Assembly: GCA_035938215.1 (NCBI GenBank)
Contig: DASZHC010000089.1
Span: forward strand, 1 to 49,488
From: Chthoniobacterales bacterium
GTDB lineage: Bacteria; Verrucomicrobiota; Verrucomicrobiia; Chthoniobacterales; JAFAMB01
Length of the DNA: 49,488 bases
Direction of reading: 5' to 3'
The position numbers and the translations under genes are program-made. Numbering within the stretch: position 1 is the stretch's first letter; each line of letters begins with the position of its first letter. This document shows, piece by piece, positions 6,472 through 45,441 of this stretch. Under the pieces are notes generated by a model. That model was not told where the DNA came from. It was given only the letters and a program-made list of their open reading frames with translations, and searched no databases.

Positions 6472-7951
6472 TTTTCGACAGTTCCACGGGGTGTTCTTCC
6501 AAAGCGCGAACCGCGACCTCGACGTCATCGAAAGGAATAGTGTGATCGCTGAACTCCTGCGTTTTCTCGTGCCCTTTTCCGGCGATCAAAACGATGTCCC
6601 TTGGCTTAGCTAACTCTATCGCGCGCCCGATCGCCTTTTTGCGATCGACGATTTTTTCATAACTCTTGCGTTTGAACCCCCCTTCAATATCGCGAATAAT
6701 CGCTTCAGGATCCTCTTTGCGCGGGTTATCTGAAGTGATAACTGTGAAATCTGCCAGTTGGTCGGCTGCGCTTCCCATCAGTGGCCGTTTTGACCTGTCC
6801 CGATTACCTCCGCACCCAAATACAACAATTAAACGGTTTGGATTCAAGTCGCGGCAGGTCCTTAGCACGTTAAATAACGCGTCATCAGTGTGCGCATAAT
6901 CGACAAAGACCTGGAACTGGCGCTTCGCGGAGACCGCTTCAAGCCGACCCGGTATCTGAGGAGCCCTTGCAAGAGCGGTAACCAATGTCCGGATGTCTAC
7001 GCCCACCGCAAAAGCAGCAGCCAACGCCGCCAGCGAGTTATAGATGTTAAAGCGCCCGATTAAGGGAAGTCGCACGAGATAGCTTTTCTCTCTGGCGTCG
7101 AGCTGGTAGGAAGTCCCGCTCAGTTCCACTTTGAAATTGCTCGCGCGAAAGTCCGCACGTGCTCCCATTCCGTAGGTGATCATCGCTATATCCCTGCCGA
7201 ATCGGGCGACTAATTGCTGCCCGTACGGATCATCAACATTGATAACCGCTGTCCTCGATTTTTTCTCGCTCGCACGCAGATTCTCGAAGAGCCGTGTCTT
7301 CGCTTCAAAGTAGTCTTTCATCCCCGGATGAAAATCCAGGTGATCTCTTGTCAGATTGGTAAACACTCCGACATCAAAGGCGATTTCATCCGCGCGGTTC
7401 CGAATTAACGCATGCGAGGAAACCTCGATCACTACATTTCGGCAACCGGCCTCGACGCAGTGCCTCAGGAGTTCCTGCAAATCAAGAGACTCCGGCGTGG
7501 TTCGATGAGCCGGCAGTACGCGTCTGCCAATCTCGTATTGGACCGTACCGATCAGTCCGCTCGGACGATTCGCTTTTTCAAGTAAATGTTTAACCAGGAA
7601 AGTCGTCGTGGTTTTTCCGTTCGTTCCGGTAACCCCAATCATCGTCAGCTCCTTGGCAGGTTCTCGGTAAAATGCGGAGGCCAACCGGGCAAGAGCTTCC
7701 CGCGAATCCGGCACAACAATCATCGTAGCCCTATGAGAAAGACCGACATATTCTCCAACGACTGCCACGGCTCCCTTCTCGACCGCCTGTTCGATAAATG
7801 AATGACCATCGAATTGTTCTCCTCGTATTGCGACAAAGAGATCTCCAGGGCCGGCTCGTCGCGAATCATAGGAAATGCCTCCTATGTCGCGGTTCACCGG
7901 GCCATCGATCGCGATAGCCCCTATCCCTCGAATGAGATCTGCCAGTTGCAT
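6461..7951 (-). CDS. murE: UDP-MurNAc-L-Ala-D-Glu--2,6-diaminopimelate (or L-Lys) ligase
   Basis: Motifs DSRRAGPGDLFVAIRGEQFDGHSF, GVTGTNGKTTTT and ITSDNPRKEDP. Start set at ATG 7951 (MQLADLIRG), 10 nt after the ftsI stop; the ORF-track start 8194 overlaps ftsI. Confidence 0.9.
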   Translation of the reverse strand: MQLADLIRGIGAIAIDGPVNRDIGGISYDSRRAGPGDLFVAIRGEQFDGHSFIEQAVEKGAVAVVGEYVGLSHRATMIVVPDSREALARLASAFYREPAKELTMIGVTGTNGKTTTTFLVKHLLEKANRPSGLIGTVQYEIGRRVLPAHRTTPESLDLQELLRHCVEAGCRNVVIEVSSHALIRNRADEIAFDVGVFTNLTRDHLDFHPGMKDYFEAKTRLFENLRASEKKSRTAVINVDDPYGQQLVARFGRDIAMITYGMGARADFRASNFKVELSGTSYQLDAREKSYLVRLPLIGRFNIYNSLAALAAAFAVGVDIRTLVTALARAPQIPGRLEAVSAKRQFQVFVDYAHTDDALFNVLRTCRDLNPNRLIVVFGCGGNRDRSKRPLMGSAADQLADFTVITSDNPRKEDPEAIIRDIEGGFKRKSYEKIVDRKKAIGRAIELAKPRDIVLIAGKGHEKTQEFSDHTIPFDDVEVAVRALEEHPVELSKNGS

Positions 7952-7961
7952 GATAACTCGA

Positions 7962-9740
7962 CTAATCACGGCTGTACCGGGACAGCGCCACTCTTTTTTG
8001 GCCAAGAGCAACGCGCTGAGGCGGAATTTCTTCGGTAGGCTGAAGATCGAGATAACGTGCCATTCTTTCCGCCATCCTCGAGAATACGGGCCCCGCCACC
8101 GTACCCCCGAACGCTTCACCCTGCTTCGCGGACGGGTCGTCCAGCAACACCAGCAAGGTGAATCGGGGATCATCCGCCGGCATGAAGCCCACAAACGAGG
8201 TCACGTACCGGCCCGATAGGTATCCTCCGCGCGGATCCACCTTTTGCGCGGTGCCTGTTTTTCCCGCGACACGAAATCCAGGCACGGCCGCCTTGAGCGC
8301 CGTACCCTTTTTGCTCACAACATCCTTCAGCGCTGATGTAATCTTGCGTGCTGTGCCCGCGGAGACGACCTGGCGCACCATTTCAGGGGTGAACGTCGCC
8401 ACTTTGCGGCCCGTTTCATCCGTGATTTCTGAAACAATCATTGGCTTCATCAGTTTGCCGCCATTCGCGATACTGGACATCGCACTAACCATTTGCAATG
8501 GAGTTACAGCCACCGATTGGCCCATTGGAATTCGCGTGATGTCCAGTTTACTCCATCGATGAGGCGGATTAACCAAACCACTTATTTCGCCGCTTAAGGC
8601 GACCCCGGTCTTTTGACCGAAGCCATACCTGCGTATGTATTCGTACAATCTCGCTTCGCCCAATTGCAGAGCTAATTTGGCTACGCCGATGTTACTCGAC
8701 TTCATCAGCACTTGGTGGACCGTCAAAACGCCCATCGGATGCGCATCCCGCAAAACGCGGCCCGCGTACTGAAAATGGCCGTTTTCGCAATATACGGTGG
8801 TATCCGGCGTTACCAGCTTCTCCTCCAGGACAGCCGATGTCGTGACAATCTTGAAGGTCGAACCCGGTTCAACCATGTCTACTACCGAACGATTTTTCTC
8901 CTGGTCGGGAACGGCATCGCCAGGCTTATTCGGATCAAATGTCGGACGACTGGCCATCGCCAGGATTTCGCCCGTCTGCGGGCGCATCATGATTGCCGTG
9001 GCGTTCTTAGGCTTGAATTGCGCGCACGCCGCGTCAAGTTCAGTCTCCAGGATATTCTGCAGCCCAAGATCGACCGTGAGCTTTACGTTGCTTCCGTCTT
9101 TTGCCGCGTTCTCCTGGCCACGATAAGGGACGAGTTCCTTTCCTGTTCGATCAGTTTCAATATATCGAAACCCGTCCACTCCCTGCAGGAAATCTTGCAT
9201 CGTGCGCTCGATCCCCATGGTTCCTTTGTGCTCGTGATCGACGAAGCCGATGACTTGCGAGAGCATCCGGCCATTCGGATAAATCCGCACAAAATCCTGG
9301 TCAAAGTAGATTCCACGCAGATTCGCCACACGGAGCGACTCCTTTATCTTCTCAGCCTTCTGCTCCGGAACCTCGGACTTGAGAACAATATGCTTACTGC
9401 CTTTTCCGGTCTGGTTCAGCTTATCCGCGAGGTCGCGCGGATCCATTTCAAGCTGATTTGCGATTGCCGCTGCCAAAGCCACCGGATCCCGAATATGCGA
9501 CGCGTCTGCAACGACGGTCTTAACCGGGACGTTTTCGGCAAGAGCTTCGTCATGAGCATCTCGGATGATACCACGCCTGGCATAGATTATTTGTTTGTGA
9601 CTGTGTTTTTCTGCAGCAAGCGCGGTGAATTTCTCGTGTTCAATAATCTGGAGATCGATGAGTCGAACCGAGTAGACACTGAATACGCCGACCAATCCAA
9701 AGCAGACGGTGACGGCGCGCGCTTGTGCATTCCAATTCAT
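7962..9740 (-). CDS. ftsI: Class B penicillin-binding protein / division transpeptidase
   Basis: 592 aa with an N-terminal TM anchor and the SxxK (STFK), SxN (SSN), KTG (KTGT) triad. dcw position. Confidence 0.9.
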   Translation of the reverse strand: MNWNAQARAVTVCFGLVGVFSVYSVRLIDLQIIEHEKFTALAAEKHSHKQIIYARRGIIRDAHDEALAENVPVKTVVADASHIRDPVALAAAIANQLEMDPRDLADKLNQTGKGSKHIVLKSEVPEQKAEKIKESLRVANLRGIYFDQDFVRIYPNGRMLSQVIGFVDHEHKGTMGIERTMQDFLQGVDGFRYIETDRTGKELVPYRGQENAAKDGSNVKLTVDLGLQNILETELDAACAQFKPKNATAIMMRPQTGEILAMASRPTFDPNKPGDAVPDQEKNRSVVDMVEPGSTFKIVTTSAVLEEKLVTPDTTVYCENGHFQYAGRVLRDAHPMGVLTVHQVLMKSSNIGVAKLALQLGEARLYEYIRRYGFGQKTGVALSGEISGLVNPPHRWSKLDITRIPMGQSVAVTPLQMVSAMSSIANGGKLMKPMIVSEITDETGRKVATFTPEMVRQVVSAGTARKITSALKDVVSKKGTALKAAVPGFRVAGKTGTAQKVDPRGGYLSGRYVTSFVGFMPADDPRFTLLVLLDDPSAKQGEAFGGTVAGPVFSRMAERMARYLDLQPTEEIPPQRVALGQKRVALSRYSRD

Positions 9741-10102
9741 TGGTTAAAGCCGCGATTGGAGACGACTCTCAACTCATCCCCGACCCCATCGTGACGCTGG
9801 TTAAGGCGAACGATTTGATCACTCGCAATCGGCAAAAGCCCGAGCGAATTTTTAGCCAGCTTCTTTTCGAGGATGCCTCTCGAACTGAGCTGGGTGATTT
9901 GCGCACGAACAGCTTCATTAGCAGTTCGGATCTCAGTGAGTTCGTACTCCAATCGGCGTTGAATCTCTCCATACTGGTGGAGCTGATTCTTCAAATAAAC
10001 ATAAGACAATCCTGCAGTTGCCAGGATTGAAGTGCTAACAACTACCTTAAAGATAGAAGCAACCTTGATAGAATGTGTAATATTCCTGCGATTACGAGTC
10101 AT
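9737..10102 (-). CDS. ftsL: FtsL-like small bitopic division protein
   Basis: 121 aa with one TM helix (IFKVVVSTSILATAGLSYVYL) followed by a coiled-coil-like segment. 4-nt overlaps with both rsmH and ftsI. Called mainly by position. Confidence 0.6.
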   Translation of the reverse strand: MTRNRRNITHSIKVASIFKVVVSTSILATAGLSYVYLKNQLHQYGEIQRRLEYELTEIRTANEAVRAQITQLSSRGILEKKLAKNSLGLLPIASDQIVRLNQRHDGVGDELRVVSNRGFNQ

Positions 10103-11073
10103 TTGCTAATCCTTTCAATTACCCGGAGCTTCGCGCTCCGGGCGCGTGAGTTGTGACCTACTTCTTCCTCACCCGGCTTGATCGGCCGAGCCGTGACCAA
10201 ACGAAAGGCATACGCAGGATTTCTCCGCGGTGCCGACCACTCAGGCCTGTCTATCCACTCCTGACTAACCTCTCGAAAAAAACGCTTAACAATCCGATCT
10301 TCCAGCGAGTGAAACGTGATAACCGACATGCGGCCACCCGTTTTCACATAAGGAGCTAAGCCGCGAAGACCGCGCTCCACCGAGTCCAACTCGTTATTCA
10401 CCGCAACCCGAAGCGCCTGAAAAGCCTTCGTGGCCGGATGCCGCAGACCTCTTTTGGGAATGACTTTCTCAATCACTTCCACAAGATCGCGCGTCGTCCG
10501 GAGGGGCGTCTGGGACCGGGCCTTCACGATCCGCGATGCCAGACGCCTTGCCGCCGATTCCTCGCCAAATTCAAAAAATATTCTCGCAAGCTCTTCCTGT
10601 GACGCCTCATTGACGATGTCTGCTGCAGTCCGCCGGACATGCGGCCCCATCCGCATGTCCAGCGGTCCGTCCCCCAAAAAACTGAAACCTCGGGAAGGCG
10701 TATCGAGCTGATGAGATGAAACCCCCAGATCCAGCAAAATCCCGTCAAACGCATCCACGCCGTAACTTGGGAACGCCTCCGCCAGATCGGCAAAATTCGC
10801 TTCCACAAGCCTGATCCTGTCAGAAAAGCAGGCGACTCTGCGCGCAGTCTCCTGCAGCGCCTCGGGATCTTGATCGCACCCGATCACCGATGCCCCCGCT
10901 TCAAGCAAAGCAAGCGCATGTCCTCCGCCTCCAATCGTTCCGTCCAGAAACAGTTTGCCCGGACTCGGCCGAAGCGACGAGATCGTCTGCTGCAACAGAA
11001 CCGGCACATGAAAACTGCTTCCGGCGGGCTGTTGTTTTGCAGACATCTGTTCCTCGTCGATTAATGCGATCAT
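10099..11073 (-). CDS. rsmH: 16S rRNA (cytosine1402-N4)-methyltransferase
   Basis: HVPVLL motif and DGTIGGGGHA SAM loop. The true start may be the internal MSAKQQ (ATG near 11046). Confidence 0.92.
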   Translation of the reverse strand: MIALIDEEQMSAKQQPAGSSFHVPVLLQQTISSLRPSPGKLFLDGTIGGGGHALALLEAGASVIGCDQDPEALQETARRVACFSDRIRLVEANFADLAEAFPSYGVDAFDGILLDLGVSSHQLDTPSRGFSFLGDGPLDMRMGPHVRRTAADIVNEASQEELARIFFEFGEESAARRLASRIVKARSQTPLRTTRDLVEVIEKVIPKRGLRHPATKAFQALRVAVNNELDSVERGLRGLAPYVKTGGRMSVITFHSLEDRIVKRFFREVSQEWIDRPEWSAPRRNPAYAFRLVTARPIKPGEEEVGHNSRARSAKLRVIERISK

Positions 11074-35296: not shown

Positions 35297-37021
35297 TCAG
35301 CGCTCAGCGTCGTTGATCGGAGTCGCGCTGAGCGTGCGGTCTAAGAAGGCGTCAAAGTCTCCCTTGAATTTCTCACGCGAGCTTTTGTCGATGTAAACCA
35401 TGTGCCCACTCTCGTAAAAAGTGAGTTCAATATTGTCGCGGACAGCAGGATCCAAGTTCATTCCATGGACAACACTCTCCGCGGCGAAGTAGGGAGTTGC
35501 GAGGTCAAAATAACTGCAGCAAACCCAAACTTTGAGATACCGGTTTCTACTCATTGCCTCCTTCAAATTAGCAGCCACGTCGAGGTATTTATTCTCCGCC
35601 AGCGTCCATGGATTAACTTCCGCAATCGTTTCATATGGGAGATCAGTTTCAAACTTCAGTTCCCGTCTTACATAGTCGTTGAACGCCGAAGTAAAAGGCC
35701 CGTTTACCGCCTGACCGCTCGGATCAAACTCTTGACGGTCTGTGCCAGGATATAGACGAATTCCGGTGAATCGGCTGTCAAATCGTCCGATCGAACGGCT
35801 TTGATCCTTCAAAAGATCATTGACAAACCGGCCATCTGTCTCTCGCAACGCCAATTGTTTGAGATAGTTCGCACTGAGACCGGTTAATCGCGCCAACTCG
35901 TTGGCGACACGATCCTGGTCTGGCTGAGGAAGCGCGTCTCCGCGGGAGAGAGCGAGAAGGTAGTCGTTCCTGGCGAACGATTCTGCCTTGTTCAACACTT
36001 CCCTCAGCGGCATACTCAGCAGATCCGAAGAGAGCTTATTGTGGTACCACGCGCTTGCGGTATAGGTAGGCAAATAGAGTGCATAAGGAACATCATTTCC
36101 CGAGGCAAAATCGATCGTTTGAAAATTCAGTACGGAACTGATCAAAACAATCCCGTTTACATATAATCCATAGCGATCCTGCAGATAATCGCTCAGACCC
36201 GCCGCGCGCGTTGCTCCATAGCTTTCGCCGGCAATTATTTTCGGCGATGACCATCGCTCGTACCGGGTCGTCCAGAGCCGAATAAAATCACCCACATTCG
36301 CAACGTCCTGCTTATATCCATGGAACTGTTTTGCATCTTCCCCGGGCGCAGGCCGGCTGTAGCCGGTCGACACAGGGTCGATGAAAACAAGATCGGTCTT
36401 GTCGAGCCAAGTTGATTCATTATCGACAAATTTGACGGGCGGGGGAAGCGTCTCACCGCGGTCCGACAATAAAACACGCCGGGGACCCAGTCCCCCCATG
36501 TGGAGCCAAACAGAGGAGGAGCCGGGACCACCATTGAAAGCAAATGTCACAGGCCTCATCGAGGCGTCCGCAACTCCATTCAAGAGGTAGGCTACAAAGA
36601 ATATCGCTGCCTTTGGTTTTCCTTTGGCGAGATCCAGCTGGGAACGAGCGTTCTGCTTGCCGGAATCCTTCTCGCTTTCTGCGGCACCGCGCGCGTCCTC
36701 TTTCGTATCACGTAGAAGGAGATAACCGGTAATCGTCTTGTAACTAAGCGTTTTGCCGCCCGGCAAGGTAACCGCATGTTCCGTAGTGACCGGCAGCGGC
36801 GGCTGCAAATCCCCTTTTTCAACTTTTTCGGTTTCTTCCTTTTTTGCCTCTTTTCCTCCCTTGTCGTCTCTCTCCGCTTTGTTTTCCTGTGGAGTCGGAC
36901 TCTCTCTCACCTCTTCATCCGATGCTTTCAAATCGGGAGACGCTCCGAACGCAAATTTCGCAACCAGGGCTAACAACAAAAAAATGAAGGGCCTGCGGAG
37001 AAACAATGAATCAATCGTCAT
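35297..37021 (-). CDS. Peptidase S10 (serine carboxypeptidase) family, secreted
   Basis: 574 aa with a signal peptide and a Lys/Glu-rich low-complexity segment. Motifs FNGGPGSSS and the catalytic IAGESYG. Confidence 0.85.
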   Translation of the reverse strand: MTIDSLFLRRPFIFLLLALVAKFAFGASPDLKASDEEVRESPTPQENKAERDDKGGKEAKKEETEKVEKGDLQPPLPVTTEHAVTLPGGKTLSYKTITGYLLLRDTKEDARGAAESEKDSGKQNARSQLDLAKGKPKAAIFFVAYLLNGVADASMRPVTFAFNGGPGSSSVWLHMGGLGPRRVLLSDRGETLPPPVKFVDNESTWLDKTDLVFIDPVSTGYSRPAPGEDAKQFHGYKQDVANVGDFIRLWTTRYERWSSPKIIAGESYGATRAAGLSDYLQDRYGLYVNGIVLISSVLNFQTIDFASGNDVPYALYLPTYTASAWYHNKLSSDLLSMPLREVLNKAESFARNDYLLALSRGDALPQPDQDRVANELARLTGLSANYLKQLALRETDGRFVNDLLKDQSRSIGRFDSRFTGIRLYPGTDRQEFDPSGQAVNGPFTSAFNDYVRRELKFETDLPYETIAEVNPWTLAENKYLDVAANLKEAMSRNRYLKVWVCCSYFDLATPYFAAESVVHGMNLDPAVRDNIELTFYESGHMVYIDKSSREKFKGDFDAFLDRTLSATPINDAER

Positions 37022-37169
37022 AGATAGGTTGTGTCAGAGAGAAAGCTACATTCCCGTCAAAGATAAAGGAGCGCGAAACTCTCCGCTCTCCAAGCACAAT
37101 GTAGTCGTTTCTCGGCTCTGAATCGATACGTAAGGAGAAGCTTCTACGGAGATGCAGATCGATTTAGAT

Positions 37170-37240
37170 ATGCTCGTCGCTCGCGCCTTGAAAAACAGCC
37201 AACTGACCCGCGGCGAAAGACATGCTATTTCGGGGACAGG
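37170..37240 (-). repeat. Degenerate family A-related X + Y modules
   Basis: TCGCTCGCGCCTTGAAAAACAGCCAACTGACC (37177-37208) is the reverse complement of the 30834-30866 module. GCGAAAGACATGCTATTTCGGGGACA (37213-37238) matches 30892-30918 in reverse. Confidence 0.65.
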
Positions 37241-37362
37241 ACACCAGGGCCAAAGCGCGGCTTTGATGCCAGCTCGGCTTTGACATCCAGACAGCAGAAA
37301 AGCGGCGAACTAAAGTGTGCAAACAGACGAATCAGAACGGCCGCCTCGGAGATCCGGCCCTC

Positions 37363-38058
37363 ATGACAATTCCTCCTCCTCCGTCCTTCCCACTCGCAAA
37401 AGACCGCTTGTCGCAGCCTTTGCAGCTTGAGCTTGACTTGACGCTAAGTGAAAAGATTTATTCAGACATCGATCTTTCAACGCAAAACTTTCAGGAATTC
37501 TGCGCGATCTTGGGCGAGTTCGCTCTGCCTAGAGCAATCGTGGATTTCGAGCGAAGCGCCTTTGTGGCTTGGAATCCGAGATTTCTTGAGCGAACGGGAT
37601 CTGCCGAAGATGAAATCAAATCGGCTAAGCCGTTGGAGTTGCTAGCATTTGACGAGCCTTGGCTTCCACTTTCTGACGAGAATGATGTGGGGAAGGCGGA
37701 ATTCATCTCCTGCTCTGTCCGGCGCCCTTTTGGCGCCGACCCGGTACCGGGGTATATCGTCAGATCGCAGACCAGGATCGGTTATGTGATGCTGGACGCT
37801 TTCGCTTCGCCATCGGGTCAATTCGATCAGGGGCGGATTGTGGGCCGGGAGGAAGAACGAAACCGAATTATTAAAGCCTATCATGAGGAGGTTTCTTCTT
37901 CGATGATAGCAGCTTTGTTCCTGGTCGAAACGGCGAAGAGCGAACTGGAAGAGGCGGGATTACCGCAAGTCGAGGCCGTTTCTAAAGCTTCAGAAAAGCT
38001 CACAGAAACGGCGCAGAAAATAGCTGACGTACTGACAAGTCCGGAGGGAAACGAGTGA
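37363..38058 (+). CDS. PAS-like + HisKA_3 (DHp) protein lacking an HATPase domain
   Basis: Start set at ATG 37363, because the ORF-track GTG 37315 lies in repeat C DNA. PAS-like LPRAIVDFERSAFVAWNPRFLERTG. H-box EERNRIIKAYHEEVSSSM. The protein ends ~65 aa after the His. Confidence 0.7.
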   Translation: MTIPPPPSFPLAKDRLSQPLQLELDLTLSEKIYSDIDLSTQNFQEFCAILGEFALPRAIVDFERSAFVAWNPRFLERTGSAEDEIKSAKPLELLAFDEPWLPLSDENDVGKAEFISCSVRRPFGADPVPGYIVRSQTRIGYVMLDAFASPSGQFDQGRIVGREEERNRIIKAYHEEVSSSMIAALFLVETAKSELEEAGLPQVEAVSKASEKLTETAQKIADVLTSPEGNE

Positions 38059-38122
38059 GCTCGAAGCCCCCTCTTCTCCAGGAACTGGTGGGTGGATGCT
38101 CTTGAGCCGCTGGAGAGGCATG

Positions 38123-38524
38123 TTATTTTTCGACCACTTTTAAGATAGTCTCTACTAGCTCGGCTGGACCGAACGGCTTCGGCAAGCACGCCTGGAAACC
38201 GGCATGAAGTACGCGCGCGCGATCTGCGCGAGTCACCAACGCGGTCATAGCGATAACTGGTACGTCGCCTCCGGCATCAGGTCCAAGGCTTCGGATGTCG
38301 CCTAGCAAGCCGAACCCATCTTGTCCTGGCATCACAATATCAGACAACACAATATTTGGGCGATAAGTCTTGACGGCCTCGAGGCCTTCCAACGCATTCC
38401 TTGCCGCAACGACTTTTGCACCCAAGCGACTCAAGAAGGCACCCAAATACCCTCGTATCTCGTCGTGATCTTCCACAACAACGATCATAAGATTGCTGAA
38501 ACGATTGGGCGACATAAAGGCCAT
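38123..38524 (-). CDS. Single-domain response-regulator receiver
   Basis: 133 aa with VVVEDHDE, LSDIVMPGQDG, IAMTA and LPKPF. Confidence 0.9.
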   Translation of the reverse strand: MAFMSPNRFSNLMIVVVEDHDEIRGYLGAFLSRLGAKVVAARNALEGLEAVKTYRPNIVLSDIVMPGQDGFGLLGDIRSLGPDAGGDVPVIAMTALVTRADRARVLHAGFQACLPKPFGPAELVETILKVVEK

Positions 38525-38804
38525 CCTACGATGACATGCGATCGTCTAGTTCGCATGCATCGCCCTTATCGGCCTTCAGGCAAGCTTCGAAATGGCAAAA
38601 GAAGATCCAATAACGGCTGAGACAGCAATTTTTCTCAATTTTTTTGCAATTATTGTCTGCGCCTGGGGTTCGCCTGCACACAGGTGGCGCGATGGCTTCA
38701 GCAATTAAAGCGCTGTTGAGCCCTCGGGCAGCGTCGCCCTCTCCGCCGCCGACAAGGCGTACTCGGGTTGAGTCTTCAACCACTTTTCCCAGGTCGTCGC
38801 GCGC

Positions 38805-39311
38805 TCATTTCCTCGCATCGAAGGTTCGGCGCCACATTCCGGCCAGTGTATTGAAGGTCTTTAAAACGACCTTGTCGACGGCAGATCTTCGGTGGCTTGC
38901 CAGCCGTACCGAGTACGTTCGGTGTCTTCGAATTGTATTCGTCGTTTTTACCTTAGCGATTGGCGGTCCCTCCGTAGCCTTACGACTTAGTGGCTGTTGA
39001 ATCGGCGGGCTAAGAGCCTCGATTGAAGATGTAGTGGATTCAGAGTGAGTCTCCGGCAGGGCAACAGCCGTTACGGACTGAGGGCGTACTTCTGGAGCCG
39101 ATTCAGCCCGAGGTTCCAAGCCGGCGGTCGGAGTGGTGGCGAGCACAGGGGCATGTGTCTCATTCGCCAGGAGTTGATTTGCACTTCTACCGAAAAGAAC
39201 AATGGAGAAGCAAATTGAGGCTAGCAAAATCAAGAAGCCAAAAACCCAAAGCCAGTCGCTTGACGCGAATTTTCCCTGACTTGCGTTTTCCAGACTTGAA
39301 CTCATGTCCAC
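38805..39311 (-). CDS. Hypothetical single-pass membrane protein
   Basis: 168 aa. TM helix WLWVFGFLILLASICFSIVLF, a Thr/Ser/Pro-rich middle and a basic C-terminus. No family recognised. Confidence 0.5.
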   Translation of the reverse strand: MDMSSSLENASQGKFASSDWLWVFGFLILLASICFSIVLFGRSANQLLANETHAPVLATTPTAGLEPRAESAPEVRPQSVTAVALPETHSESTTSSIEALSPPIQQPLSRKATEGPPIAKVKTTNTIRRHRTYSVRLASHRRSAVDKVVLKTFNTLAGMWRRTFDARK

Positions 39312-39465
39312 TCCGATTTATCAGGGCATCATCAAATCACAGATTCTCAATTTTCGAAATCAGGCTTTGCCCTGAGCATCTCGCGCAATCCGGCGGAGGC
39401 CCCAGTAAACCTCGCAGGCCCCCGCGCGAGCACGCCCTGTGCGGCTGAACGAACCAACAAGGCCT

Positions 39466-39515
39466 GGCTAGTGCTTCAAAAATACCTGTGGTTATGTTAC
39501 TTGTGCAAGGAACTT
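39466..39515 (+). repeat. Family E direct repeat, copy 2
   Basis: GGCTAGTGCTTCAAAAATACCTGTGGTTATGTTACTTGTGCAAGGAACTT. It abuts the point where receiver-domain homology ends. Confidence 0.7.
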
Positions 39516-39522
39516 GAAAATG

Positions 39523-39651
39523 GAGCTGCAGGTCGGTCAACAGCAGATCGAATGGCTTTTCCGCGTTGGTAGCCAAGGCAAGTGCCTCTTGGACATTCCG
39601 GGCCGAGTCAGTCCGATGACCGAGACCGCGGAGAAATAGTTCCAGCATCGG
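39523..39651 (-). pseudogene. Receiver-domain remnant (N-terminal half only)
   Basis: PMLELFLRGLGHRTDSARNVQEALALATNAEKPFDLLLTDLQL resembles REC beta1-beta3 up to the phospho-Asp. The expected PxxxG continuation is replaced by repeat E sequence. Stops and frame changes lie upstream. Confidence 0.5.
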
Positions 39652-39765
39652 CAGAGAGGGTAGGCGCATCGGCCAAGCTTACAATCATGTTGCAAGCAAA
39701 GGAAAGAAATTTGGGCTGTGGACGCAATGAGCAAATTCGGCTTCAATGTCGAAATAGCAATATCT

Positions 39766-39954
39766 TTCGTTGCGATCAAAATGGGCCGCCGGCAAGGCGG
39801 TCCGAGCCGGACTGGCGTTAGAGGGCGCATCCCGCTCCACTTTCTAATAATCCTGGTACTCTCGCTCTCTGGGGCGGCATGAAAGTGGGGCGGGACGTAA
39901 CCGAGGAGCAACGCAGCCGCCGGCCCATTTTCATCGCAACCCTATGGGCCGCGG
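39766..39954 (-). repeat. Family B long-hairpin element, copy 2 (inverted relative to 24286..24492; outer TIRs missing)
   Basis: GCATCCCGCTCCACTTTCTAATAATCC...GAAAGTGGGGCGGGACGT plus the arms GATCAAAATGGGCCGCCGGCAAGG / GCCGCCGGCCCATTTTCATC. It aligns along its length with the reverse complement of copy 1, and an X-like module follows (39955-39986). Confidence 0.8.
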
Positions 39955-40358
39955 CCAGTTGGCTGTTTTTCCGCGAGGCTCGGGCGCCCCTCGCTCGGTC
40001 GACGAAGGCGCCGACACGATCACGTCTCGCCATGAAATACCCAAGGTGGGAGCCCGTGCGTGAATCATGCGCGCCAGGGATCTGTGGCGGGGGGTTGCCC
40101 GGTGATGGGTATTCAAACGGCAGATTATCGCGATGGAGGCAATCACCGATTCAAAACCGCCAAAGAGAGAGAAGGAATGACAGCGCACTACAATGTATTT
40201 TCAGATGCAGCCTCGACAAACGGCAACTCTTTCTGCTACGTCCAGAAGGCACGTTCAAAACGATCTTCTGCAAAGCTGGGTCCACACCAAATCCCTGCCT
40301 AGCCCCGCGGCCCGCCGGGAGCGACTTGAATGGTGAAGCTCAGACTTTTGTAAGGCTC

Positions 40359-40748
40359 ATGAAAGGTGATTCAGGCGTGGTTCTTGCCGGGCGACTCCTG
40401 GCCAAAGCGGCACCTTCCTTTTATAGATCGACACGCGTCCCAAAACAGGAGCTCGCCCGAACTCTTAGCGCAATCTCCATTTATCTCGCCGAAATCGCGG
40501 AAGCTTTGCGGTTCGGGGGTTCTCCGGTTCCATCCTCGGCGCAGCTTCGGGCGAAAACCATCACCTTGATCATTGTTGCGCGTGAAGCAGTGCCCGAGGA
40601 GGTTGTCCGGGAAATCGCTCGTCAGTTAGTCTACTGCTCAAGATTTCTGGTTCTGTTTGACGACGGTCATCCGTCAGTTGACGCAGCATCCGAGTACGAG
40701 GCCGTGTCGAAGATATTCAAAAATGTTTCGGAACGGCTAGCCAGTTAA
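40359..40748 (+). CDS. Hypothetical protein
   Basis: In-frame ATG inside ORF 39879..40748, whose upstream part is repeat DNA. 129 aa, no recognisable motif. Confidence 0.35.
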   Translation: MKGDSGVVLAGRLLAKAAPSFYRSTRVPKQELARTLSAISIYLAEIAEALRFGGSPVPSSAQLRAKTITLIIVAREAVPEEVVREIARQLVYCSRFLVLFDDGHPSVDAASEYEAVSKIFKNVSERLAS

Positions 40749-40973
40749 GGCAGGCCAACAAAACATGAAGCAGCATAAAGCCGCACCAGCGCCTTTAATG
40801 GTTTTCACTTAGCTAACCTTCGCAGATTTGCGAAAGTCGAGTTAGGACAGACACGCTTGGAGTCGCTAGTAAATAGTTTCCCCAAAAAGCGGGCTAAATG
40901 TTTCGCAGAAGCGTCATCTGGAGGCACTGCGGGTAAGCTGCCGTCGTTTTTCTGGCCCCGGCGGAGGTCGTCA

Positions 40974-41366
40974 TTACCCCCGATAGAGAAGCACTTCGCA
41001 GCCGCCCACTCGATGGTGCTCCAGCGGTGTCCCTGCTTGTCGGAAAGCTTCTTCGCTGATGGGCCAGATACTTGAGTGACTTACCTTCCGATGGGGGCCT
41101 GGGTTAAGGATAAAGAGGACATCGTCTCCAGCTTGTAGTTCAAGTTCCAGGTTGCGCAGGCGTTTACCCCCCTCATCGACGCTTTTCATTTTGATGATGC
41201 AGTGCACAGGCTCGCCTGCGGATTCGTCGTGTGCCGTATTGGTGATCATTGCCTGATATTCAAAGAAAGAGTAATGGCTCATCAGTTTTTTTGACGCAGC
41301 GGACTTACTCATAATTCGATCGATGCGGAGCTTTATGCTCTTTTGAATTTGTTCTGTCTCAGCCAA
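40974..41366 (-). CDS. Hypothetical protein
   Basis: 130-aa ORF with a TTG start; internal ATGs are possible. No recognisable motif. Confidence 0.35.
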   Translation of the reverse strand: MAETEQIQKSIKLRIDRIMSKSAASKKLMSHYSFFEYQAMITNTAHDESAGEPVHCIIKMKSVDEGGKRLRNLELELQAGDDVLFILNPGPHRKVSHSSIWPISEEAFRQAGTPLEHHRVGGCEVLLYRG

Positions 41367-41484
41367 TGGCAGGCGGCTATAAGGACTATAACTGGTGGAA
41401 AATTACCCTGAAGACCTTTTTATGATGGGGATCACTGATTAGCGCACTTTTGGTAGGTCTCGGAGCTCCTCTGGTAGCCTCAGG

Positions 41485-41655
41485 GTGTTGGCGGAGCCGT
41501 TTCTCGTGGGTTTCACCGATTTTCAGATGCCTTCGGAAATCCTAGGTTGTGTCATGAGGCAACGTCGCATTTCGCTGGGAACGGTAAAGACCCGACTTCA
41601 TTTAGCTCAGCGCAAACTGCATAAATTTCTTCTGCCGATTCACCACAAGATATGA
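41485..41655 (+). pseudogene. ECF sigma-70 region-4 fragment
   Basis: Hand translation gives VLAEPFLVGFTDFQMPSEILGCVMRQRRISLGTVKTRLHLAQRKLHKFL, which resembles the region-4 HTH (GTVKSRLHRAR consensus). No region 2 is found upstream. Below the ORF-track cutoff. Confidence 0.5.
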
Positions 41656-41672
41656 TTGTGTTATGGGAAAGA

Positions 41673-42359
41673 TCACTCCTGCTGCGAGACCCAATCGATC
41701 GCAAAGCGCACCATGTCTTCCGAATCGGGAAATCCTAACTTCTCCTTAATGTGAGCACGGTGGGTCTCAATCGTTTTGACACTCAAATGGAGCGTATCCG
41801 CGATTGACCTCGTAGAATGACCCTTGCCGAGAAGCTGGAGTACCTCCAGTTCCCTGTCTGAAAGCATGTCGACCGGCGACCCCGTACCCAATTCAACCGA
41901 CTGTATCGCTTTAAAAATGAGCTTATCGCTAAAGTTCGGACTTACGTAGATCTTGCCCCGGAGCACTTTGGTAATAGCCTCTGCAACTTGAGCCATCGCC
42001 TCTGCTTTCATCACGTAGCCCATCGCTCCGGCTTTCAGGGCCCTCAGACCGAAGACGGCCTCGTCATGCATCGAAACAACAAGAATAGGCAGATGAGGCT
42101 GCTCCGCTTTCATCAACTTGATCAACTCAATACCGTTCGTTCCGCGTAACGACAGATCGAGCAGAACGAGGTCCGGCTGGAACTTCCTCATCGCCTCGAG
42201 AGCCAGCGGTGCAGACTCTGCATGGCCACAAACTTCGAGATGAGGTTGTTCTGAAATCAAACCAGCCAAACCAAGGCGAAATATCGGATGATCATCAACA
42301 ATCAGAACCCGCTTCTTCGGATTCTGAACCTGATTGGTGCCTTCATCTTGGGTGTCCAT
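41673..42359 (-). CDS. NarL/FixJ-family response regulator (REC + LuxR HTH)
   Basis: 228 aa with VLIVDDHPIF, LVLLDLSLRGTNG and MGYVMKAE. HTH region LSDRELEVLQLLGKGHSTRSIADTLHLSVKTIETHRAHI. Confidence 0.92.
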   Translation of the reverse strand: MDTQDEGTNQVQNPKKRVLIVDDHPIFRLGLAGLISEQPHLEVCGHAESAPLALEAMRKFQPDLVLLDLSLRGTNGIELIKLMKAEQPHLPILVVSMHDEAVFGLRALKAGAMGYVMKAEAMAQVAEAITKVLRGKIYVSPNFSDKLIFKAIQSVELGTGSPVDMLSDRELEVLQLLGKGHSTRSIADTLHLSVKTIETHRAHIKEKLGFPDSEDMVRFAIDWVSQQE

Positions 42360-42469
42360 AGCTTCCAGACGAGCACTCCGTCATTTCCATTGCACCACCG
42401 AAGAAGTTGGCCTTTCTGACAATGTCCGCCTCAGACGCTGGTGTACCCGTTAAATATATACCATATAGA

Positions 42470-43132
42470 TTAATCGTAATCTGCGGTGCGCCGAGTAAGA
42501 TTTTGAAGGTCTATGACCGCTGTATTCAACAACTCAGCAAGATCGGAAGCCTGCTGTGCGAAACCATCATCGAGTCCCCGGACCTTTCCAGCGAGCACCT
42601 TGCATCCAAACGCCGCCCCGAGAAGTTTCTGCGAAACGTTCTTATGAAGTTCGTCGCGAATCCTGGATCGCTCCATCGCCCGGCCCCTAGAAAATCCCGG
42701 CTGATCGCTCGTCCGAGGATCCGCCGCTGACGAAGGAATAAAAACACATGCGATCAGCGGATCGACCGTCTCCTGCTGGATTCTTCCCGCACTCCGCATC
42801 TCAAAATTTCTTTTCCGACCGCGCCTCAAACTCAACCGCACGCGCGCTTTGGCGGGCTCAAATCTGGCAGCCGCGGCGACCCAGTCCGCCCTTTCGTCCT
42901 TGTTCATAGAGGGCAAAATGCCATCGACAAACCAGAGGCGATAATCAGCGATTCCTGTCGAGACGATAAGGTCCGCAAAGAGACGATTGAACGCCGTGAC
43001 CTCCATCGTTTCCGGAGAGATACGAAGAGCTGGCAAGCCTATATGCTGCATCAGACGGCATATCCAGTCGGACGACGTCCCCGAATTCGTCTCTTCACAC
43101 GAATTCCTCTCTTCTTGTCTCAATTGTTTCAT
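42470..43132 (-). CDS. PAS-like + HisKA_3 (DHp) protein lacking an HATPase domain
   Basis: ATG 43132-43130 overlaps the upstream receiver's TGA (TGATG). H-box ERSRIRDELHKNVSQKL. The protein ends ~65 aa after the His, and a 110-nt non-coding spacer follows. Confidence 0.75.
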   Translation of the reverse strand: MKQLRQEERNSCEETNSGTSSDWICRLMQHIGLPALRISPETMEVTAFNRLFADLIVSTGIADYRLWFVDGILPSMNKDERADWVAAAARFEPAKARVRLSLRRGRKRNFEMRSAGRIQQETVDPLIACVFIPSSAADPRTSDQPGFSRGRAMERSRIRDELHKNVSQKLLGAAFGCKVLAGKVRGLDDGFAQQASDLAELLNTAVIDLQNLTRRTADYD

Positions 43133-43581
43133 CAGCAAACTTTGCAGTCCTTTTTACTTGATCCACTCCGGTACTCCCCTTTTGAAGCGTCTTGCTCGCG
43201 ACCGCTTTCTTGATTCTCGACAACCGTTCCGGCTTTCTCCAAAAGCGCAACAAGATCGCCAGGTGTAAACGGCTTTACCAGATGATGGTCATAGCCCACA
43301 GAGCGACTTCTGAGCAAGACCTCTTCGCTTCCGTACCCGCTCATCGAAATAGTAAGACCGGGTCGCTTGCTTTTAATTCTTTCCATAATTTCCCAACCAT
43401 CCCCATCCGGAAGGGCAATGTCACTGATCAGTACGTCGCAAGTCGGTCCCGGAAACAGCTTCAATGCCGTCGCCATATCCTCCGCCGTAGTCACCTCGTG
43501 CCCAAGCTGCTCCAGGTATAGACGGATATACTTTACGGAATCCTGATGATTTTCGACCAAAAACACTCGCAGACCACGCAT
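43132..43581 (-). CDS. Single-domain response-regulator receiver with a polar C-terminal tail
   Basis: 149 aa with FLVENHQD, LISDIALPDGDG, ISMSGY and LVKPF. GGGAGG lies 5 nt upstream of the ATG. Confidence 0.9.
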   Translation of the reverse strand: MRGLRVFLVENHQDSVKYIRLYLEQLGHEVTTAEDMATALKLFPGPTCDVLISDIALPDGDGWEIMERIKSKRPGLTISMSGYGSEEVLLRSRSVGYDHHLVKPFTPGDLVALLEKAGTVVENQESGREQDASKGEYRSGSSKKDCKVC

Positions 43582-43891
43582 ACCAGCCTCCCGTTCGGAA
43601 CATCAACCACTATAGCAATTTCCACTAAATGCCAGTAAACTTACGAGTTTTAGAACCTGAGAAATGCGCGGCGCCCAGGTTTCGCCGCTTATTCTCCGTG
43701 GACAATTCAGCCCGAAGGGTTCAACAGAAGGTAGCAAAGGTAACTGAGGTTTTCTCCGGTTTAAGCTCCAGGCCGCAGAGCAGGTTGCATCCTCGGCAGC
43801 TCGTTCAGCCAAGCGTCTCATTTCCGGTTCTCTGTTGCCTTCGTTTTCTTCTGTTCACAAACACGATCAACAACCGTTCATAAAATTGGCA

Positions 43892-43924
43892 AGAGGCGCA
43901 GATGCATGCAGCGTCTGCGCCTCT
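43892..43924 (-). terminator. Strong hairpin downstream of the 69-aa ORF
   Basis: AGAGGCGCAGA / TCTGCGCCTCT: an 11-bp perfect stem with an 11-nt loop. On the minus strand it is followed by TGCCAATTTTA, a weak U-tract. Confidence 0.5.
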
Positions 43925-43968
43925 GTTAATTCCCTCACTTTCAGCCGGGAGCTATGACCGGCATTTGT

Positions 43969-44178
43969 CTAGTCTTTTTCCCTTTCCACTTTCACTTTCT
44001 GGCCCGTCTGGCGATCATAGTAGATTTCTTTCCTGCCCTTCTTTTCGACCAGCAGATACCGGGGTAGATTCTGTTGAATTTGGCTATACGTTACCACCCC
44101 TTCTTCTGCAGGCTGTTGGAAGGTAGTCGTTGTCGTGGTGCTCGAGGGAGCCTGCACGATCGCACCTTCGGGATTCAC
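43969..44178 (-). CDS. Small hypothetical protein (69 aa, GTG start)
   Basis: Thr-run and Lys/Glu-rich C-terminus (LLVEKKGRKEIYYDRQTGQKVKVEREKD). Downstream of the Lpt permease and followed by the hairpin. Confidence 0.4.
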   Translation of the reverse strand: MNPEGAIVQAPSSTTTTTTFQQPAEEGVVTYSQIQQNLPRYLLVEKKGRKEIYYDRQTGQKVKVEREKD

Positions 44179-44322
44179 ATAGACAACCTGCTCTCCGCTT
44201 TCACTCCGAACCGTGACTGCGTAGATGCCGCCGTCGGAACGGTCTCAGGGAGTTCCCTGAGATAGCGATAAGGCTGGTGTCGGTCGCGTCGGGAGCAGCG
44301 CCGGTTGAGCCAAGCGGCCCCG

Positions 44323-45441
44323 CTATCCCGTAAACGGAATTGGCCGATTCGTTGACCGCAGGTAAAGCAGCACAAGTCCAAGCAGCAGAAAAGAGATTGC
44401 CGGCGTCCATGCCGCCACAACCGGAGATATTCTTGACCCCTGGCCAAGAGCGAGAAACACGTTGCTCGACGAGAACAACCCAACAAAAAGGAAAAGCCCA
44501 CCAGCTACCCCACCCAGAGTCCCTCGGCGGGAAAACGCAACACTGAGGGGGCTCGCTACTAATACGACTACGAGCACATTCCACGGCAATGCGAACCGAT
44601 ACCACATCTGCGTCTTGAATTCGGCCAGATTCGCCTCAGGAAAATCACCGTTTTCAGCAAGATAATGCTTTAGTTGCGGGACCGTCATGTATTTGCCCTT
44701 CATGGAGGAACTCGCAAGCCGCCATGGCGTCTCACTCCAACTTCCGATCTCTTTTTGCGAAAAGAATTCCTCCCCTGTAACGTTCCCGGCCGGATCCATA
44801 TGAGCAATTTTTCCGTTGTAAAAGATCCATAGTTTCCGCGCTCCGTCGTAAGTCGCGTCCAGCCCATAAATCTTCGATTGAATCACTCCCTCGGCATCCA
44901 GCTGGATCACCTGGACATTTCGAAGTTGTTCGTTTTTCGCGTCAAGCAATTGAATGAACCAGATGCGATGATCGGAACGATTGGGAAAGACGTGAGCATC
45001 AAGGCGCGCATTTTTGACTTTGCCTTTGACGATTTCATCCAGCATGTAGGCACTCGCCCAAAGCCCCTTGGGCCCAAGCTCGTAGTTTAACAAGGTACAA
45101 GCACCCGTGAGGAGCAAGCCAACCAGCATCAGGGGAAGCAAGACCCGGGGAACACTGACGCCGGCGCCCAACATCGACACGATTTCATTGCGACGCGACA
45201 TGCGTGTCAGGACATAGAGGAGTCCGAGCAGCACGCACAAGGGCATCCAGGTAACAACAACAAAAGGAATCTGCGTGAGGTAAAATCGGCTAATTGACTC
45301 AAACGACAAATGGGCCTCTTGAAAATCATTCGCATGCTCACCGAGATCGTAGACCAGCCAGACAGCGACCATCCCGAACAAGGAATAGAAGAACGGGACC
45401 AGAAAATTCTTGATGAGGTAACGGTCAAAAATCCGGACCAC
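44323..45441 (-). CDS. LptF/LptG-family (YjgP/YjgQ) LPS export permease
   Basis: 372 aa: three N-terminal TM helices, a large periplasmic beta-jellyroll-like insert and three C-terminal TM helices. N-terminus IFDRYLIKNFLVPFF is typical of the family. Confidence 0.85.
   Translation of the reverse strand: MVRIFDRYLIKNFLVPFFYSLFGMVAVWLVYDLGEHANDFQEAHLSFESISRFYLTQIPFVVVTWMPLCVLLGLLYVLTRMSRRNEIVSMLGAGVSVPRVLLPLMLVGLLLTGACTLLNYELGPKGLWASAYMLDEIVKGKVKNARLDAHVFPNRSDHRIWFIQLLDAKNEQLRNVQVIQLDAEGVIQSKIYGLDATYDGARKLWIFYNGKIAHMDPAGNVTGEEFFSQKEIGSWSETPWRLASSSMKGKYMTVPQLKHYLAENGDFPEANLAEFKTQMWYRFALPWNVLVVVLVASPLSVAFSRRGTLGGVAGGLFLFVGLFSSSNVFLALGQGSRISPVVAAWTPAISFLLLGLVLLYLRSTNRPIPFTG

Follow-up and report, generated by a model that had tools for sequence, protein, structure and literature searches.

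Several bacterial phosphorelays route the phosphoryl group through a protein built like a histidine kinase, and Spo0B, ChpT and PhyT are degenerate kinases of this kind that work as phosphotransferases (PMC5898713). The Spo0F-Spo0B-Spo0A sporulation relay of Bacillus subtilis combines a single-domain receiver, a dimeric DHp-type histidine protein without kinase activity and a DNA-binding regulator, and its kinase is a separate protein. Within the pathway CckA-ChpT-CtrA/CpdR of Alphaproteobacteria, ChpT is a dimeric phosphotransferase that resembles a kinase in its DHp and ferries phosphate from one receiver to another. In PhyT/SdrG of the Sphingomonas general stress response and in MrrA-LovK/PhyK of Caulobacter, a sensor-bearing degenerate kinase receives phosphate from a single-domain receiver and hands it on to the output regulator, and it may also act negatively (PMC5898713, PMC5964349). 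We analysed a 49,488-nt stretch of DNA (the window, numbered along the forward strand) from a soil Verrucomicrobia member, a Chthoniobacterales bacterium (contig DASZHC010000089.1, assembly GCA_035938215.1), which holds a module of three intact open reading frames (ORFs) on the minus strand in the order REC1 (a single-domain receiver), MID (a protein with a PAS fold and a HisKA_3-type DHp only) and a NarL-type regulator. With slightly better than even confidence, we read this module as a phosphorelay running from a kinase to REC1, from REC1 to His163 of MID and from there to the NarL-type regulator.

A sequence-only reading of this DNA had proposed the three minus-strand genes, with a 110-nt gap before a regulator with REC and LuxR-type helix-turn-helix (HTH) domains, and a coupling of the first two genes through TGATG. 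All three lie where that reading placed them (Table 1), and the REC1 stop and MID start codons do overlap by one base in TGATG. The H-box of MID is ERSRIRDELHKNVSQKL (His163 codon at 42644..42646), within a DHp that reads ERSRIRDELH163-KNVSQ168-KLLGAAF175-GCK. The same reading had expected a C-terminal HisKA_3 H-box followed by some 65 residues, as well as a match to PF07730 (HisKA_3) and none to PF02518 (HATPase_c) in 42470..43132. The H-box is present and PF02518 is indeed absent, but the protein ends 57 residues past His163, and PF07730 matches MID only below threshold (E 3.8e-4, 21.4 bits, under the 24-bit Pfam gathering cut-off). Precomputed PF07730 matches exist for most MID homologues, with the distant member P0135 reaching 27.1 bits.

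The fold of MID was modelled with AlphaFold2 from 30 homologues (predicted local distance difference test, pLDDT, 77.6). In the model residues 1-20 are disordered, residues 23-133 form a beta2-alpha3-beta3 PAS-type fold, and a two-helix hairpin (144-184/189-218) closes the protein with nothing after it. Foldseek ranked LOV/PAS proteins and PAS-kinases, e.g., YF1 (4gcz), highest, with E 7.5e-6 to 1e-4 and probability 1.00. The PAS-like character that had been suggested for the N-terminal half is supported by this topology and by Foldseek, although not by Pfam, which gave no PAS match to MID. The LOV Cys motif is absent from MID in the alignment, in which Cys25, Cys129 and Cys177 are conserved, and a family-profile sequence search against solved structures returned only one irrelevant designed protein.

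Nothing resembling a kinase ATPase domain accompanies this hairpin. The whole window, with the 110-nt spacer after MID, was translated in six frames and searched with two hidden Markov models (HMMs) derived from the ATPase (CA) domains of kinases related to MID; neither gave a match (best E 0.65), and positive controls were recovered at 1e-51 to 1e-58. This bears out the earlier observation that no HATPase_c sequence is visible in MID, in the spacer or elsewhere in the window. The short form is also the rule throughout the family. A word-indexed search gave 131 clusters of MID homologues, with identity down to 37%, from soil metagenomes and Verrucomicrobia metagenome-assembled genomes (MAGs), every one of them 172-242 amino acids (aa) long; matches in genomes were exclusively to Chthoniobacterales/Verrucomicrobiae MAGs. 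An exhaustive search of 1.8 billion representatives with the MID profile returned only 27 sequences at E <= 1e-10, all short. Beyond a gap, from E 1.7e-10, follow full-length HisKA_3 kinases that align over the PAS and DHp regions and then continue into an ATPase domain; they carry the same LLGAAF signature as MID, but with His-Asp. Four short matches that seemed to lack a CA domain (P0157, P0183, P0173 and P0203) were considered as evidence of a wider CA loss and rejected; we took them as contig-end fragments because their sequences stop inside a motif (…RGLHPV).

Comparison of the window genes with three orthologues gave ratios of nonsynonymous to synonymous substitution rates (dN/dS) of 0.20-0.28 for MID overall and of 0.03-0.07 for the regulator. 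Within MID, the DHp has 0.09-0.13 and the PAS fold 0.24-0.29, whereas the ratio is about 1 for the first 22 codons. MID is under purifying selection and is a functional gene. A decaying, truncated histidine-kinase pseudogene might be suspected from the sub-threshold Pfam score and from the degradation of two neighbouring genes here (an extracytoplasmic function, ECF, sigma factor gene and an upstream gene of the 154-aa type, both described below), but the uniform length of a family of more than 130 clusters and the low dN/dS exclude it, and the mere 110 nt to the next gene hold no CA remnant. The sequence-only reading had seen in REC -> PAS/DHp -> NarL a kinase-less module that would serve either as a phosphatase or as a HisKA_3-based phosphorelay, and had named a cryptic ATPase domain and a truncated pseudogene as the two findings that would speak against it; Pfam and the CA models gave no sign of the former, the data above none of the latter, and the proposal is supported.

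Against this background, MID stands apart from the described phosphotransferases. Spo0B has a C-terminal CA-like alpha/beta domain and no sensor, whereas MID consists of a PAS fold and a terminal hairpin, and no Spo0B-family match to MID was found in Pfam or NCBIfam at E <= 1; the module further differs from the Spo0 relay in its HisKA_3-class DHp, its NarL-type regulator and the Glu-Asn of REC1 in place of Asp-Asp. ChpT also lacks a sensor, but it keeps a pseudo-CA domain, belongs to another DHp family and is served by an upstream receiver fused to a hybrid kinase; the ChpT/HPTransfase profile gave no Pfam match to MID, whose model has no C-terminal domain. Stress genes and an ECF sigma factor accompany PhyT, much as csbD and an ECF sigma gene occur at MID loci, but PhyT itself is membrane-bound, of the HWE/HisKA_2 class, and retains a degenerate ATPase domain, and its output is the anti-anti-sigma protein PhyR instead of a NarL-type DNA binder. 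HPt domains are monomeric four-helix bundles, whereas the two-helix hairpin modelled for MID would have to dimerise, and Pfam gave no match of the monomeric HPt (PF01627) to MID at E <= 1. Judged by sequence and architecture, MID is outside the Spo0B, ChpT and HPt families, and the Spo0-type relay logic is only a functional parallel.

HisKA_3 is the DHp class normally paired with NarL regulators. DesK/DesR, NarX/NarL and a pair at the locus L023 share with MID the HisKA_3 DHp, the register E-R-x-R-I-x-x-x-L-H-x-x-x-x-Q, a hydrophobic anchor at H+12 and the NarL regulator family, whereas MID has no CA domain, has lost the Asp at H+1 and is coupled to an extra receiver gene upstream. At L023 (a Terrimicrobiaceae MAG, 6519..9281), a 692-aa PAS-PAS-PAS-HisKA_3-HATPase_c kinase, whose DHp ELHDHLAQQLLGAAFG is 39% identical to MID, is encoded before an orthologue of the regulator (64% identical), and a convergent ECF sigma gene comes after it; this canonical two-component version looks like the ancestral state of the locus. 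A loss of the CA domain is known from ChrS_CA-fs of Corynebacterium glutamicum, a HisKA_3 protein that is still important for signalling to a NarL-type regulator (PMC9491836), but it is laboratory-evolved, membrane-bound and His-independent, whereas MID belongs to a natural, conserved family in which the His is invariant and a receiver serves as dedicated partner. Full-text literature searches gave no description of a HisKA_3 DHp-only phosphotransferase, in agreement with the earlier impression that this arrangement had not been described.

The pattern of conservation around the H-box is informative about what MID may do. The His is conserved in all 126 family members and the Gln at H+5 (Gln168 in MID) in 125 of them, and Phe175 (H+12) is invariant in the alignment. 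Position H+12 corresponds to DesK Leu200, the hydrophobic anchor that inserts into a pocket of DesR alpha1 (PMC5231405), and receiver docking on MID looks preserved through Phe175. From the DxxxQ motif of HisKA_3 the family has kept the Gln part and lost the Asp part: H+1 is Lys in 56 members, Arg in 34, Gln in 19, Ala in 10 and another residue in 7, with Asp and Glu found once each, whereas an acidic residue (HD) is universal at this position in the related full-length kinases (P0147, P0150, P0168 and L023). The idea of a charge swap, in which Lys164 of MID would pair with an acidic T+4 residue of the regulator after the model of DesK Asp189-DesR Arg84, was rejected because the regulator reads SMH[DNS]E both with MID and with the full-length HD kinase of L023.

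These residues also bear on whether MID could be a PAS-regulated, dedicated phosphatase or anti-activator of a regulator that is phosphorylated by other kinases or acetyl phosphate, with REC1 as a pseudo-receiver controlling MID or in competition for it. We consider this unlikely. In its favour, the nearly invariant Gln at H+5 is the residue that positions the catalytic water in HisKA_3 phosphatases (PMC5231405). But the His, which is dispensable for HisKA_3 phosphatase activity and cannot be bypassed for phosphotransfer (PMC12632262, PMC5231405), is invariant in MID; the Asp at H+1, whose salt bridge in DesK:DesR is peculiar to the phosphatase state (PMC5231405), is replaced by a non-acidic residue in 124 of the 126 members; and the HisKA_3 kinase ChrS, once stripped of its CA domain, apparently lost its phosphatase function in vivo (PMC9491836).

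In REC1, the sequence-only reading had noted intact D, S/T and K positions. These residues (Asp54, Lys and the Ser that follows beta4) do not vary among orthologues, but the acidic metal-binding pair is Glu10-Asn11, with the Asn kept in all 16 orthologues aligned (one of them with Glu-Asn-Asp), and the active-site quintet is incomplete in that its second acidic position (DD2) is Asn. DD2 binds the metal directly and is 100% acidic in receivers and commonly Asn in pseudo-receivers, so that REC1 is formally a pseudo-receiver by the definition used there, although DD substitutions do not necessarily abolish phosphorylation (PMC12632262). After beta4, REC1 has 'MSGYG', and its switch position is occupied by His and not by Tyr or Phe. 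An FxSGY/'FATGUY' motif together with loss of the aromatic switch residue is described for the intermediary receivers CckA-Rec, MrrA, SdrG and CpdR (PMC9981736), and Rec_inter, the receiver that partners ChpT, shares with REC1 an SGY ('FATGUY'-like) motif (PMC9981736, PMC3433190). The best NCBIfam matches of REC1 include the receivers of two hybrid kinases, TorS and ArcB. In these sequence features (the SGY(G) motif, the switch residue and the TorS/ArcB matches) REC1 resembles intermediary receivers.

The regulator has a receiver with a canonical active site (DD, D, S, Y, K), with Pfam E-values of 4.4e-25 for Response_reg and 6.9e-16 for GerE. It is similar to the MctR, NarL and UvrY types (best NCBIfam match MctR, 6.5e-47), with all equivalog cut-offs missed. 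Across loci its identity is 77-98%, compared to about 55-95% for REC1 and 36-90% for MID.

Gene order was compared across 62 non-identical MID loci pooled from exact-protein look-ups, GTDB genomes and JGI metagenomes. Recurrence of the synteny in relatives, suggested earlier as a check, turned out strongly positive: wherever a locus has room upstream of MID (53/53), REC1 is the gene directly there, and its stop codon often overlaps the MID start codon, while a NarL-type regulator directly follows MID in 32/53. In one subgroup, with a more divergent MID (36-40% identical), the place of the regulator after MID is taken by csbD together with a PAS-GAF-HisKA-HATPase_c kinase in convergent orientation. 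Some of the module-bearing MAG contigs are long, 5.0 Mb for L016 and 3.0 Mb for L021. The ECF sigma gene is a frequent neighbour of the module. In favour of the relay, one distant homologue (P0129, L024) has a receiver with a fully canonical active site before it and the regulator after it. At L022 (7599..9367), REC1 and the regulator are frameshifted and MID is highly diverged, which reflects either decay or long-read assembly error.

Complete HisKA kinases are common next to the module. A GAF-PAS-HisKA-HATPase_c kinase gene lies immediately upstream of REC1 in 11 loci, with gaps of 3-45 nt (3 nt in L002), and a HisKA kinase gene is convergent just downstream in another arrangement, also in 11 loci. 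By Pfam annotation, a complete HisKA + HATPase_c kinase adjoins the module in 21/62 loci, and in 11/25 among loci of at least 6 kb. A dedicated phosphatase would leave this frequent coupling of a complete kinase gene to REC1 unexplained. At L011 (7190..7640), apparently only the C-terminal remnant of a kinase gene is present upstream of REC1.

With its His conserved, its own ATPase domain absent and kinases frequently adjacent, MID might also be half of a split kinase. Its His would then be phosphorylated in trans, with the ATPase domain supplied by a second protein, either a partner in a heterodimer or the HisKA kinase next to it, and REC1 would be a phosphate sink or modulator. We regard this as very unlikely. 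The acidic residue at H+1, universal in related full-length kinases, is lost in 124 of the 126 MID sequences, and a stand-alone CA-domain gene was seen in none of the loci examined. The adjoining kinases are moreover of the HisKA class and MID is of the HisKA_3 class, and mixed dimers are unlikely because the DHp classes differ.

A further alternative holds that MID is a His-independent pseudokinase or scaffold that tunes output by heterodimerising with a full-length HisKA_3 kinase encoded elsewhere, or by recruiting the regulator to it. In its favour, a laboratory-evolved CA-less ChrS boosts cross-phosphorylation of the regulator by a paralogous kinase without need of its own His (PMC9491836), the phylum does have full-length kinases with the LLGAAF DHp signature, and the second family described below (MID2) tolerates Asp in place of the His in 6 of about 107 members. 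But conservation of both the His and the Gln at H+5 is not required of a His-independent scaffold, the strict coupling to REC1 is left unexplained, and no full-length HisKA_3 kinase is found at or near any MID locus, except for unrelated ones several kb away; we find this alternative improbable.

The phosphorelay is built on what was observed at these loci, namely the domain content, the absence of an ATPase domain, the conservation of the His, the Gln and the docking Phe, the purifying selection and the gene order. MID cannot phosphorylate itself, its His is invariant, its docking surface is apparently kept, a receiver and a regulator are coupled to it, and in many relatives a kinase of another DHp class adjoins REC1; a four-step relay is the most economical reading and has parallels in Spo0F-Spo0B-Spo0A, CckA-ChpT-CtrA and Pak-SdrG-PhyT-PhyR (PMC5898713). 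MID would be a dimeric, sensor-gated histidine phosphotransferase that arose from a PAS-HisKA_3-HATPase_c ancestor after loss of the ATPase domain. A GAF/PAS-HisKA-HATPase_c kinase, adjoining in many relatives and presumably encoded elsewhere in the genome from which the window derives, would autophosphorylate and pass the phosphoryl group to Asp54 of REC1; phosphorylated REC1 would donate it to His163 of MID, and phosphorylated MID to the NarL-type regulator, which would then bind DNA. Gating or reversal of the phosphotransfer step might fall to MID's PAS fold. Gln168 would permit dephosphorylation of the regulator and, since it is conserved, MID may possibly act as a regulator phosphatase as well. 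The individual phosphotransfers, a dimeric MID and the part played by its PAS fold are inferred, and phosphatase or scaffold action is the less probable alternative to phosphotransfer.

Several points weigh against the relay. Asn, at a position that is a direct Mg2+ ligand, occupies DD2 throughout the REC1 orthologues; no kinase adjoins the module in the window or in its closest relatives; and the distant MID homologues at L025 and L026 occur with regulator and ECF sigma genes but without a receiver directly upstream. The Asn at DD2 (PMC12632262), the absence of a kinase from the window and the two loci without an adjacent receiver also speak for a dedicated phosphatase. In addition, the alpha1 surfaces of REC1 and the regulator differ, yet the same DHp must dock both. 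Finally, phosphotransfer in DesK:DesR, the sole HisKA_3 system studied structurally, is unidirectional, with back-transfer from Asp to His disfavoured (PMC5231405), and therefore acceptance of the phosphoryl group by MID from phosphorylated REC1 would need a different geometry. Known relays show His-Asp distances of about 5-6 Å (PMC5231405). At L025, the region 8899..10600, 3 kb from the MID homologue, also encodes a 1221-aa CheB-CheR-PAS-HisKA_3-HATPase_c hybrid and a single-domain receiver of NarL-like type.

About 4 kb from the three-gene module, the window holds a second pair, MID2 and REC2. MID2 and MID are remote paralogues (hhalign probability 93%, E 2.8e-7). MID2 has a PAS-like region and the H-box GREEERNRIIKAYHEEVSSS (AYHEEVSSS), ends 58 residues past the His and probably has its true start near 37465; no Pfam model matches it. 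Its model is of lower confidence (pLDDT 56.8, with 78-88 in the hairpin) and shows the same topology as MID. More than 455 homologues of about 198 aa were found, and MID2 is always convergent with the canonical single-domain receiver REC2, also in unrelated contexts (L027-L029). With MID/REC1 and MID2/REC2, this lineage has two kinase-less PAS-DHp families, each with its own receiver.

On this basis we suggest, tentatively and with somewhat less than even confidence, that Chthoniobacterales-type Verrucomicrobia have a new class of minimal, sensor-gated phosphotransferases made of a PAS fold and a DHp hairpin only (the HisKA_3-derived MID, in over 130 clusters, and MID2, in over 450 homologues), which are paired with receivers of their own and would rewire HisKA kinases onto a NarL regulator, with REC1 active despite its Glu-Asn site, at present regarded as a sign of pseudo-receivers that cannot be phosphorylated. 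If true, a bare DHp hairpin without a CA-like domain would suffice for a bacterial histidine phosphotransferase, a two-component pair would have become a four-step relay through domain loss and receiver recruitment, and the relay would take in a signal midway, through a PAS sensor sitting on the phosphotransfer step itself. REC1 is a natural test case for phosphate carriage by receivers whose second metal-binding residue is Asn, a question that bears on the classification of about 2% of annotated receivers (PMC12632262). For annotation, 'incomplete histidine kinases' such as MID should not be dismissed as fragments or pseudogenes.

Table 1. Features of the MID and MID2 loci in the window
Feature	Position	Strand	Basis
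REC1, single-domain receiver, 149 aa	43132..43581	-	Pfam Response_reg E 1.8e-19
MID, 220 aa from ATG, PAS fold and HisKA_3 DHp only, without CA domain	42470..43132	-	Pfam, AlphaFold2, Foldseek
PAS-like sensor fold of MID, residues 23-133	42734..43066	-	AlphaFold2 topology, Foldseek
DHp two-helix hairpin of MID, residues 144-218	42479..42703	-	Pfam, alignment, AlphaFold2
Spacer between MID and regulator, 110 nt	42360..42469	-	Too short for a CA domain
NarL/FixJ-type response regulator, REC and GerE HTH, 228 aa	41673..42359	-	Pfam
Remnant of ECF sigma-70 gene	41485..41655	+	Comparison with relatives
MID2, second PAS-like and DHp-only protein	37315..38058	+	Remote paralogue of MID
REC2, canonical single-domain receiver, convergent with MID2	38123..38524	-	Pfam/context

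In relatives, the ECF sigma-70 gene is convergent to the regulator and codes for 207 aa in L005, compared with a 56-aa ORF in the window. The remnant results from an in-frame internal deletion of about 493 bp (junction 41556/41557) that left about 10 N-terminal and 34 C-terminal residues; it is shared by the close relative L040, and the gene is full-length in L005-L010 and L032. The interval 40745..41479 next to it measures about 740 bp in the window and about 240 bp in L005, the extra DNA carrying a 130-aa ORF (40974..41366, minus strand) with no Pfam match. Upstream of REC1, L005-L008 encode a 154-aa, Thr-rich, secreted-looking protein, of which the window (43890..44242, with an ORF at 43969..44178 on the minus strand) matches residues 56-154 only; because the signal-peptide end is missing, this gene is probably truncated here, with its N-terminal third lost. 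Despite this decay of neighbouring genes, the three genes of the module are intact and under selection. A scan of 36500..45000, spacer included, gave no Rfam match, and promoter and terminator consensus patterns were no more frequent than in shuffled sequence and are uninformative on operon structure.

A conserved protein of 130-138 aa without a Pfam match is encoded at 40356..40745 on the plus strand (75% identical to L005 6285..6701). In relatives its gene shares a strand with the ECF sigma gene and is situated just upstream of it, and for this reason the protein may be a partner of the sigma factor. At loci with csbD downstream of the module, a conserved leader is found about 60 nt upstream of csbD, with the pattern CCTGAGC-N-CCTAAG-N-AGGGCC-N-CAGC(T/C)GCGTCTAAC. 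ECF-type promoter patterns gave no match upstream of csbD in related loci. The leader was located at L001 8035..8094, L044 6750..6807, L049 8425..8483 and L053 2155..2213, with a variant in the csbD/kinase subgroup, and could be a promoter, a regulator site or a structure in the 5' untranslated region.

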